Assembly: GCA_963693365.1 (NCBI GenBank) | Contig: CAVNZM010000006.1 | Location: 5,621,264-5,685,263, forward strand | Source: Amoebidium appalachense | Taxonomy: Eukaryota > Protista > Ichthyosporea | Reading direction: 5' to 3' | DNA length: 64,000 nt | Part shown: piece by piece, positions 3,001-6,000 of the stretch | How the letters are laid out: each line of letters opens with the position of its first letter | How positions within the stretch are numbered: position 1 is the first letter of the stretch | The notes under the pieces: model-generated | Database searches by the model: none | Seen by the model: the letters and a program-made list of their open reading frames with translations, nothing else | What the model was told of the DNA's origin: nothing | Position numbers and translations under genes: made by a program

Positions 3001-6000
3001 GCAACCGGGCATGGTTGCTCTGTGTCGTGCATCTGTAAGCACACGCGTTTGTCGCTGCACTGCATTAGTTTGCACACACATCTTCACCGTTTTGCTCACC
3101 TTGCTTGCATAAGCAACCCTGCTCGTCTTTGATCAAGACGGGTTGACCCACCCAAGTTCAGTTGATGCTGCTGTCTGAGTTGGAGCGTCGTATATACGCG
3201 GGCTAAGGGGTCGAAACTCAGACGCAATTGATGACTTGGGTCCTCCCTGAGGATGGGCTCTGCTTATGACGCATACTGTGCACATGGCTGATGTTGCATA
3301 CTTGAATGTTTGCCTTTGCATGTGTCCTGCACCATGCTTCTCGTCGTGTATGCGTACTTCGTACCGTTTTCCGCATTCAAACCCCCCCCCCCCCCCCGAC
3401 GCATACTGTGCGCATGGCTGATGCTGCATAGTTGAATGTTTGCCTTTGCATGTGTCCTGCACCATGCTTCTCATCGTGTATGCGTACTTCGTACTGTGTT
3501 CCGCATTCAAACCCCCCCCCCCCCCCCCCCCCCCACCCACCCCCCCCCCTCCCCCTCCCGGGGCAAAAAAAAAAAAAAAAAAAAAAAAAAAAACCTGCCG
3601 ACCCCCCGTGTACTGTGGATGACTTGGGCCTTTTCCCCCTGAGACCGGGACATGCTCATATGGTGCAACTCTTTAATGTGTACTTTGCAACATCTGCATT
3701 GTATTGTCCTTAATGAATGCGTATTTCGTTCTCTGCAACGTATGTTTACCCCCCACCCACCCACCCACCCCTTTCCTCGCCCTACGTCCCCATCACCCAC
3801 CACCTACCCCCTCCTCCTCCTCCCCTTCCTCCTCCTACTTCTTCCCCCCTCCATATTTCCTCCCCCAACATCCCACCCGTTACCTTCTTCACCACATTTG
3901 TTTACCAGCAAAAAAATGGGTCAATTAGTCAGTAAAAGGGAGAACCGTTTAATGTATCCTATTCACGCTACAGGCCTTTGAATGACTGGTTATGTGTGGG
4001 GTGCAGGCGGCGAAAGAGCAGACGGCAGGCGTCATCGACACAACAAACGAATTGCAGCAAAAAGCGTATGCAACCCCTTCCCTGTCTCCTCACTTCCCTT
4101 TCCCCCTGTCCCCTCCGCCTTTAACCTCGCTCCTCTCACCGGGTCACCGCCACCACTACCACCACACACACGTGTACACGCATGGCGCATGCATACACAC
4201 ACACACACAGGCGCTCCCGACACACACAATTACCAGTTTTTGTAGACACTTTCAAAGCCATTCAGCCGGGGGGAAGGGGGGGGGGGGGGGGGGATATATA
4301 CCACCAGTTTTCTTACAAACCTTTTGATTCATGCAGTTCGCAAAAGCACTATATATTGCCGGTTTGGGTGTGCGGACCTTTGCACTATTTTGGTCCCCCC
4401 TCCCCCCCCCCTCCCCCTCCCCCCGGGGGGGGGGGGGGGGGGGGGGGCAAACGGTCAACACCTTATGTTTCATTGCCTGTAAACCGTTACAAGCATGTAC
4501 ATAGCCTTGCAACCACGTCAATATGTTGACAAGCAAGCACACACCGTTGCAAGCATGTCTCTCCCTTTTACAATCATGTACATACTACATATCCTTAGAA
4601 GCATGGTTCGCCGGTTTTTCTTTAACACATTCTATTGTATGCAGTGGGCGTGTGCAGGTGCGAGCCGAGGTAGTGGACAAGTTCATCAGCCGGTTCCAGC
4701 TGACCCCCGAGCAGATGGCTGCATTAAAGGGGGCAGGGGGAGGCCATGCGCTAACACACATGGCTACAAACGTGAGGTCTCAGACCGTGGGCAGGCAGGG
4801 CGAGACTAGAAGATCTTCCATTACACCAGAGGTACGGGCTGGCCCTTATTTTTTATTTTTTCATTTTGGTTTTTTTTTTTTTTGTCCTTCTTTTTTTTTT
4901 TTTTTTTTTTTTGGTGGGGGGGGGGGGGGGGGGGGGGGGGGGTGCTGCTTTTTGAGGCGGGATTAGGAGGTTGCATTGCACATGAGGCACCGGCTGCAGA
5001 TATCCCCCCCCCCCCCCCCCCCCCCCCCTTATATTACCACTTGATTCCAGTTCGGGAGAAGCAAGGGGGCAGGGTGTGTGTGTGTGTGTGTGGGGGGGGG
5101 GGGGGGGGGGGGGGGGGGGGGGGGGAGGGAGGTAAGGGGGGGAGGGGGGATGGAGGGAGTCGGGGAGAGAGAGAGAGAAGCGGGGGGAGGGTGAAGGGGA
5201 AGGGGGGAGGGGAGGGGAGGGGAGGGAGAAGAGAGAGAGAAAGAATGGCAGTTACCGCATTTATTAGACTAGCATGTATCACCTATTAGTTTTTGATCAC
5301 CGCGATCCGATGCTAACATGGTGCGCGGTGCCTATAGGGTCTTGTTGTGGACGGGGATGGTGCTGGTCCGGGGGAGTTAGACGAAACCTTTTTCGAGGCA
5401 CTGGAGAGGGCCAAGCAGATCCATGCCGACTGCAAGGTGCTACTAAGGTCTCAGCACCAGATCATAGGGTCCGTTCTCCCTTGTTCCCCCTCCCCCCCCC
5501 CTCCTCCCCCCTGTTTTTTCCCATGCCTCTCCCTTTGCCGCACCCCCCCCCCCCCCCCTTTTGATTATCTAACGTCTATGTCGGGATTTCTTCAGAATTC
5601 CTTGATGTGGTTTCATGCCATCCACAAAGACGGAGGTTTTGCCATAAACAGGCAAAGCTAATCATAGAGTCTATCATGATTATGACGTAGAATCGACTCG
5701 ATATCGTTGTCAGGCCACGAGGTGCCGACACCATAGACTGCATGTACTTGGACAAGAAATAACAACTGTTCCTTTTTTGGGGGGGGGGGGGGGGGGGGGG
5801 GGGGGGGGGGGGAGAATGGGAGAGGGGAGGGGGGGGGGGGGGGGGGGGGATGGTTCATGGGATGAATACAATCTGAGTATTTTCAAAATGCTGCAAGTCG
5901 ACTAACTTAATCTCTGCAAATCGACTGGAGATTAGCTTCAATTTAATCTATAAAAATTAAAATCTAAAAAATAATTTCTGTGCAGGCTTGAGATCATGGA

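Follow-up and report, generated by a model that had tools for sequence, protein, structure and literature searches.

Hammerhead ribozymes in which the three conserved blocks follow one another as cleavage site, GAAA and CUGANGA (S-G-C) have been described as type-SGC (Eckert et al., 2023; PMC10085705). For this type, 583 examples were predicted and five natural ones were shown to cleave, at rates of 0.007-0.19 per minute, all four stems were validated by compensation, and an 'I' helix was required for cleavage. In the known alignments, insertions that separate CUGANGA from the stems do not exceed 1-2 bases, the published descriptor allows linkers of 0-8 and 0-15 nucleotides (nt) with CUGAUGA fixed, and only short core insertions in hammerheads are also given by Perreault (2011; PMC3088659). 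The reported type-SGC ribozymes came from metatranscriptomes only, with none of them traced to a known organism's genome. Among retroelements, the Chlamys elements are 5'-truncated, have (C)n and (CA)n as targets, include non-autonomous forms and were reported without canonical hammerheads (PMC8557442). Here we describe a complete hammerhead core in S-G-C order in genomic DNA of Amoebidium appalachense, where it is part of a dispersed intronic repeat. The window, i.e., the whole stretch analysed, comprises 64,000 nt (assembly GCA_963693365.1, contig CAVNZM010000006.1, forward-strand positions 5,621,264 to 5,685,263), and all coordinates are those of the window. Ichthyosporeans, to which this organism belongs, are unicellular relatives of animals.

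The complete core, with its stems in register, is present in two copies, B (3108-3268, + strand) and A (25081-24924, - strand), which were compared throughout. Both contain CUGANGA, GAAA, NUH and the pairs A15.1-U16.1 and G10.1-C11.1, with H17, G12 and C3 at 3181, 3213 and 3247 in B and at 25010, 24980 and 24945 in A. An earlier note on this DNA had listed eight features of a complete core in this non-canonical order, all of which were found where it had put them; of the span 3107-3268 that it had assigned to the motif, the end holds, whereas the closing stem begins at 3108. A relaxed core scan covering all six block orders across the window returned exactly two matches, B and A, both S-G-C, with 4, 6 and 9 paired positions in stems I, II and III of B and 3, 6 and 11 in those of A, while the canonical cyclic order S-C-G (types I, II and III) gave no match in the window. 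Rfam models, which the earlier note had proposed to search, likewise gave no match at gathering score in the window to any family, with ribozymes, hammerheads included, absent from both strands, and the three matches at 2900-3800 were at chance level only. As A and B are homologous, they were counted as one event; 3049 dinucleotide-shuffled versions of the whole window yielded 19 matches in any order, of which five were S-G-C, and one that was equally strong. Judged from its sequence, the motif probably represents a working hammerhead in one or another of its folds.

The motif is 158-161 nt long and, in B, begins with the 5' strand of a closing helix, P0 (3108-3119), consisting of P0a (8 base pairs (bp), 3108-3115) and P0b (3 bp, 3117-3119), with pair probabilities of 0.95-1.0 and 0.75, respectively; the folding model places its 3' strand at 3255-3268. 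The hairpin P1 (3122-3142) follows, the stem of which is identical in A and B, and then an upstream strand GACYC (3145-3149), a candidate partner in stem II (option Y) in which G3145 would be G10.1. The 5' strand of a rod-base helix (3150-3157) pairs with 3234-3241. Block S (3173-3185) comprises the 5' strand of stem III, the triplet GUU (3179-3181) and the 5' strand of stem I (3182-3185), and the cut is predicted 3' of 3181 in B and between 25010 and 25009 in A, where the motif occupies 24924-25081 (-). It is separated by the 21-nt S-G linker (3186-3206) from block G (3207-3223), which contains a stem II strand (3207-3212), GAAA (3213-3216) and the 3' strand of stem III (3216-3223). Block C (3243-3261) consists of the 3' strand of stem I (3243-3246), CUGANGA (3247-3253), U3254 and a second candidate strand for stem II (option X, 3256-3261), which overlaps P0b. 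The loop on top of stem III, which has 8-11 bp, measures about 35 nt and contains the cleavage triplet, the GAAA block and one of the two stem I strands, and CUGANGA is situated beyond the base of the long rod; stem I has 3-4 bp. The S-G linkers measure 20-21 nt and the linkers overall 19-22 nt. In the commoner variants, a 4-bp hairpin may form that would shorten the S-G linker to about two unpaired bases; it depends on variants at 3186 (B) and 24990 (A) and is weak in folding models. A reading of GGCTAA, which we took to be a motif of such junctions, as a hepatitis delta virus-like junction was dropped, as subfamily A differs at 24990 in 99% of depth and no such fold was seen by eye.

A and B are identical at 101 of 161 positions (63%), and N7 differs between them whereas the remaining core bases are kept. 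Of 36 pairs in six helices, 27 are identical, seven changed on both sides, one changed on one side and one is broken. Thus, seven of nine varying pairs are double changes (p ~0.001 against random substitution, a value that is inflated because the helices were picked from A and B themselves). The closing stem accounts for three of these, stem III for two, and stem I and the upstream stem II for one each; the four in stems I-III come from two sequences, too few for a real covariation test. These changes give good support to the nested frame and modest support to the pseudoknots. The pseudoknotted hammerhead with reversed block order that the earlier note had proposed is supported.

Stem II has two mutually exclusive partners, the X strand, which follows CUGANGA after two bases, and the upstream Y strand; the G10.1-C11.1 pair holds under either. 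Option Y forms five Watson-Crick pairs in both A and B and is compatible with P0b, and in the consensus of a third subfamily (C, see below), read by eye from loose ends, it forms six Watson-Crick pairs as compared to five pairs with wobbles for X. The nested substructures have energies of -27.3 and -25.7 kcal/mol with Y and P0b and of -20.2 and -21.1 kcal/mol with X. Under Y, A9 is followed by a single U, and the rod base directly flanks stems II and I, so that the rod-base helix, which folds in A and in B, would fill the place of the 'I' helix as the tie between stems I and II. Because it flanks these stems as in PMC10085705, the rod-base helix is likely the counterpart of the type-SGC 'I' helix. 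Option Y is ranked ahead of X, and the earlier note's first choice of GACYC proved to be the better-scoring one. With GACYC as stem II, the catalytic strand would be interrupted between A9 and G10.1, as P0 and P1 would come to lie between the single U and G10.1; block C has at most two bases between CUGANGA and stem II under X and more under Y. In the alignment of the window copies, Y is paired in 94.7% of 19 cells and X in 90% of 30, which does not separate the two; stems I and III were excluded from these tests, as block S is shifted by one column in the alignment.

The motif shares with the type-SGC ribozymes the S-G-C order, the full core, stems I and II crossing stem III as pseudoknots and the U after CUGANGA, which is present in nearly all published rows (PMC10085705); under Y, a helix joining the outer flanks of stems I and II would be a further common trait. 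The published rearranged ribozymes have at most 104 nt, an S-G linker of about 3 nt and an unbroken block C, whereas the motif described here has about 160 nt and linkers of 19-22 nt, two additional helices, P0 and P1, and two partners for stem II; due to the long linkers, neither A nor B would match the published descriptor. The published examples are RNA contigs next to hairpin ribozymes, in contrast to the genomic, intronic repeat DNA found here. A short linker, a length of up to about 104 nt and a viroid-like contig with an opposite hairpin ribozyme, which mark HRIMA-1 and the SGC variants, were all absent. By order and core, the sequence assigns the motif to the type-SGC permutation class and not to the HRIMA-1 families. 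Accordingly, the topology, which the earlier note had not recognised from described ribozymes, had already been published (Eckert et al., 2023), and what is new here is the host, the size and the probable split core.

Literature searches on permuted SGC hammerheads since 2023 returned PMC10085705 only, with subscription papers and the Naiad/Chlamys consensus files outside their scope, and titles and the first lines of abstracts on non-circularly permuted hammerheads and retrotransposition gave no genomic SGC. No paper was found for the phrase of a helix inserted between A9 and G10.1, the hits listed for 'stem IV' were not relevant, and a search for hammerhead ribozymes in Ichthyosporea found no paper; the main text of an ichthyosporean genome paper (PMC11244446) does not contain Penelope, SINE or ribozyme. 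A specific pattern of the motif gave 0 loci in metagenome contigs, and looser patterns gave nine viral loci, 117 metagenome loci (in 24 of 64 parts) and 123 viral loci (in 23 of 64 parts). Five of these 249 loci passed a weak S-G-C filter, and blastn detected no similarity to A or B in any of the 249. Two GC-rich stretches of metagenome DNA that are nearly identical to each other (L026:1-140 and L119:215-400) passed this filter with 10 pairs in stem I and four in stem II and may represent chance or DNA-borne type-SGC.

The motif resides in a repeat. Seventeen related segments were identified in the window, in agreement with the earlier note's view of a multicopy RNA, and two of them hold the complete motif while a third has all blocks but a broken stem I; most contain the 3' part only, indicating frequent 5' truncation. 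The segments remained after short and low-complexity matches had been dropped from 36 merged matches, with segment ends adjusted by hand; a candidate copy at 35706 was discarded as it was not recovered in a second similarity search. The B element (2999-3382, +) starts with the C-run that follows the splice donor of COG6, ends at its 3' C-run and is followed by a tandem second copy of its 3' tail, set off by a C-run (3398-3512, +). This tail duplication is the one candidate in the window for a partial tandem (pseudo-LTR) as known from Chlamys/Naiad elements; back-joints came from single contigs. The A element (24815-25200, -) measures about 390 nt, and a decayed A-type copy retaining the 5' half only (11607-11842, +) starts at about the same 5' point, which suggests, at the sequence level, a unit of about 390 nt. 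By eye, the A element's 5' start (25200, -) is roughly complementary to a conserved stretch before its 3' C-run (24830, -), and both stretches are telomere-like (TTAGGG).

The remaining copies are shorter. Among the 5'-truncated A-type copies, that at 10221-10466 (+) has all three core motifs and the broken stem I, that at 13850-14135 (+; copy 13851) has a decayed GAAA block and changes that strengthen option X, and that at 63461-63603 (-) begins just before block C. At 13869-13872 (+), the core CG of copy 13851 now reads TA, as would be expected from decay of a methylated CpG on both strands. A truncated copy at 3597-3751 (+) matches the third subfamily (C) of the run data, and truncated, decayed copies are found at 6175-6328 (+, C-like), 6495-6628 (+), 14170-14300 (+), 23800-23958 (-) and 48366-48520 (+, C-like). 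Two 3' fragments with C-runs between them (27679-27812 and 27855-27965, together 27679-27965, -), a B-type 3' tail fragment (28592-28674, -) and a further 3' fragment (61027-61134, -) complete the set. C-rich flanks were found at 14 of 17 5' ends and 15 of 17 3' ends, as compared to 8.7% of random sites; the C-runs may be target or tail.

In public contigs, B was matched by 3682, 4683 and 8307 contigs of three DNA runs, and thousands of contigs cover the B element throughout 3040-3380; A was matched by 1113 and 1666. The summed depth on B in run X1 is near a million, compared to about 18-97 for long single X1 contigs; it is not a copy number, yet about a thousand or more B copies are suggested even when the 31-fold overlap among short contigs is divided out. 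Depth increases toward the 3' end for both B and A. Within 3108-3268, eight positions vary at a level of at least 3%, of which none affects a core base and five fall on junctions or the ends of helices, and the uniformity of each subfamily points to recent spread. The third subfamily, C, was seen in loose ends and has its own stem III extension, with a consensus agreement of 0.6-0.8 (by eye). For the runs used as RNA, which are contigs and were only guessed to be RNA, the ratio of RNA to DNA depth drops locally in the bins 3172-3195, around the predicted cut of B, but comparably low values occur at 3280 and from 3352 onward; no dip occurs at the cut site of A. In one such run (X9), C3 of A (24945, -) reads U in 45% of depth, from five contigs, compared to 0.4% in DNA, which may reflect one expressed dead copy; dead A-type copies may be over-represented in stable RNA.

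The closest retroelement counterparts are found among Penelope-like elements. With their hammerheads (PMC4209133), the repeat shares the eukaryotic retroelement setting, an extra base between 9 and 10.1, the conserved G10.1-C11.1, many truncated copies and several subfamilies; those ribozymes are type I (C-G-S), mostly with a minimal stem III and dependent on dimers, whereas the order here is reversed and stem III is long. Like the non-autonomous Chlamys/Naiad elements (PMC8557442), the repeat shows 5' truncation, insertion at (C)n, high copy number and no detectable canonical hammerhead, although the term ichthyosporean is absent from the preprint, which thus does not report such elements from this group. 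Since 5' truncation, C-run insertion and the U after CUGANGA match Penelope-like elements, we infer that the repeat was spread in a Penelope-like manner, with a Chlamys/Naiad-type Penelope element as the putative partner. Animal non-LTR (long terminal repeat) retrozymes are likewise short non-coding hammerhead repeats thought to borrow a Penelope-like enzyme (Li et al., 2026; 10.64898/2026.07.22.740005), but they form tandem arrays with a type I ribozyme per unit and are depleted in introns, whereas this repeat is dispersed, intronic, on the sense strand and S-G-C. The retrozyme-like carrier envisaged in the earlier note is therefore apt as a likeness, while the published definitions of retrozymes do not apply: no type I tandem array, no match to type III, no paired full motifs and no LTRs were seen.

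Taken together, we tentatively favour an S-G-C hammerhead, predicted from sequence to be self-cleaving, that is carried by a high-copy, likely non-autonomous repeat inserting into C-runs and that folds as one molecule with a split strand. In this fold, the rod would bend so that the stem III loop docks on the junction at the rod base, stem I would form with the strand preceding CUGANGA, the upstream GACYC would supply the partner in stem II, A9 would be followed by U, the closing helix P0 and the hairpin P1 and only afterwards by G10.1, and the rod-base helix would act as the published 'I' helix tying stems I and II. Read-through transcription, e.g., within host pre-mRNA, would be followed by a cut after GUU that frees the element RNA, which is perhaps circularised; a borrowed Penelope-like enzyme of the Chlamys/Naiad type would reverse-transcribe this RNA into C-runs, leaving mostly 5'-truncated copies without the cleavage block. 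According to a more far-reaching proposition, a Chlamys/Naiad-type retroelement in a unicellular relative of animals uses as its working ribozyme a non-circularly permuted split-core hammerhead, in which P0 and P1 are inserted after A9 and before G10.1 and stems I and II are braced by a four-way junction; this appears rather improbable at present.

Several findings weigh against the favoured reading. In a monomer, the rod of about 25 bp would have to be sharply bent, and a kink-turn-like loop is seen in B only, with tandem G-A pairs in A and C (by eye). The pseudoknot stems I and II rest on two double changes and one broken pair in two sequences, the absence of core variants is without power since the linker is equally invariant, and the alignment tests are not decisive, as the observed percentage paired was equalled or exceeded in 19 and 17 of 500 shuffles. 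The split strand of Y violates the published limit of 1-2 bases for insertions next to CUGANGA (PMC10085705). One contig of an RNA run spans the cut site of B. The 5' ends of the copies show no accumulation at the cut site, as would be expected of an inactive ribozyme but just as much of a circular or tandem template. In the scan of 17 of the window's 153 open reading frames, no Penelope-like enzyme was seen, and the sole reverse transcriptase among them looks LINE-type (long interspersed nuclear element), presumably, as judged from its motifs. Downstream of this fragment (49922-50932, -) lies non-repetitive sequence of about 1.2 kb, and no connection between the fragment and the ribozyme repeat is apparent.

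Among the alternatives, an ordinary type-SGC fold through option X would keep the catalytic strand intact, with the upstream GACYC acting as a decoy partner that keeps the ribozyme inactive while it is being transcribed. It agrees with the published block rule (PMC10085705), forms six pairs in A and B and is well paired across the window copies as given above; its helix alone is 1 kcal/mol stronger than that of Y in A, and copy 13851 adds one double change in its favour. However, X requires 1-3 G-U pairs and the loss of P0b, its strand is invariant in A and B though the partner varies, and the substructure as a whole is weaker by 4.6-7 kcal/mol. In addition, a simple 'I' helix would be available under X only if P0 and the rod base were refolded, and the variant of copy 13851 is rare, as none of the six C>T places counted for run X1 is at 24935 or 24937; we regard this fold as rather improbable. 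A head-to-tail dimer through stems I and II, in which each apical loop docks on the partner's basal junction to form two hammerheads on straight rods that cut only when the RNA is concentrated or in tandem, would, on geometric grounds, make the sharp bend unnecessary, and Penelope-associated hammerheads were reported as dimer-active (PMC4209133, PMC6765202). The known dimers stem from a too-short stem III, though, unlike the 8-11 bp here, the full motifs A and B lie 22 kb apart in the window, and the type-SGC ribozymes cut during transcription from single-copy constructs (PMC10085705). The palindromes in the linkers, through which the earlier note had imagined a dimer, do exist, yet 9-16% of shuffles pair as well in three of four linkers examined, i.e., they are no better than chance. 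A dimer thus seems unlikely.

Somewhat less likely still is a hammerhead-derived structure that cuts hardly or no longer and is kept as a handle for reverse transcriptase or merely copied along with a successful repeat. This would fit the uncut B sequence in the RNA-run contig, the short stem I, the nested fold, which is very stable without stems I and II, and the orientation of the segments: all 14 that lie in the two identified genes have sense orientation, in which self-cleavage would sever the pre-mRNA. The long C-runs there are mostly sense, too (62 of 87), which explains part of this bias. Nevertheless, although 37% of positions differ between two subfamilies, the core is intact in both, with stems changing in step, only two of the 17 segments retain the complete motif, which means a small load on splicing, and the published rates of SGC cleavage (PMC10085705) may be slow enough for splicing to win. 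A chance likeness in another structured intronic RNA, such as a small nucleolar RNA (snoRNA) or a SINE (short interspersed nuclear element) derived from transfer RNA (tRNA), is very improbable. Sense orientation in introns would suit it, and CUGA and UGAUGA look like what we take to be boxes D and C, but no tRNA or tRNA head and no match to a curated family was found, the Rfam matches being those at chance level, and the three stems are in exact hammerhead register, which one of the shuffled windows attained with equal strength.

The window is intron-rich eukaryotic DNA, and both complete copies are intronic, as the earlier note had stated. Copy B lies inside an intron (2977-4006, +) of a COG6 gene, in which two of three exons tested match the COG6_C domain, and its predicted cut is 205 nt into the intron. 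Copy A is located between two exons of a gene for an HD-domain (SAMHD1-like) protein on the - strand, which is covered by 17 tblastn segments of protein P0123 and has one exon identical to it. The best other match of P0123 is 58% identical and has the id prefix Ihof, while an id with CFRG ranks behind one plant protein; we take these prefixes to denote the ichthyosporeans Ichthyophonus and Creolimax. A degenerate copy of the COG6 exon 2905-2976 is present in the preceding intron (2714-2771, +; 84% identity over 61 nt), with an apparent fainter one near 2490-2570 (by eye). At 55621-56925 (+), a GH18 chitinase has its best matches in bacteria, with 65% identity to a Deinococcus protein, and was likely acquired horizontally. 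A cluster of short imperfect GCAGAA/TTCTGC-rich repeats in both orientations (58640-59260) appears, by eye, unrelated to the ribozyme repeat.

When type-SGC hammerheads were described, neither a host nor a role in genomes was known for them (PMC10085705), and a eukaryotic family with genomic copies on the order of a thousand or more would link them to retrotransposition. Should the upstream stem II be the active one, the hammerhead core tolerates whole helices where only 1-2 bases had been assumed, and the block rule used in hammerhead searches would be too narrow. The split core would then also explain why descriptor searches have missed such ribozymes, including in the Naiad/Chlamys elements reported without them. 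If the Chlamys/Naiad link holds as well, a concealed hammerhead design would have been present in this 'ribozyme-less' branch of Penelope-like elements from before the origin of animals. Finally, the sense-strand copies in introns of housekeeping genes raise the question of a race between self-cleavage and splicing.

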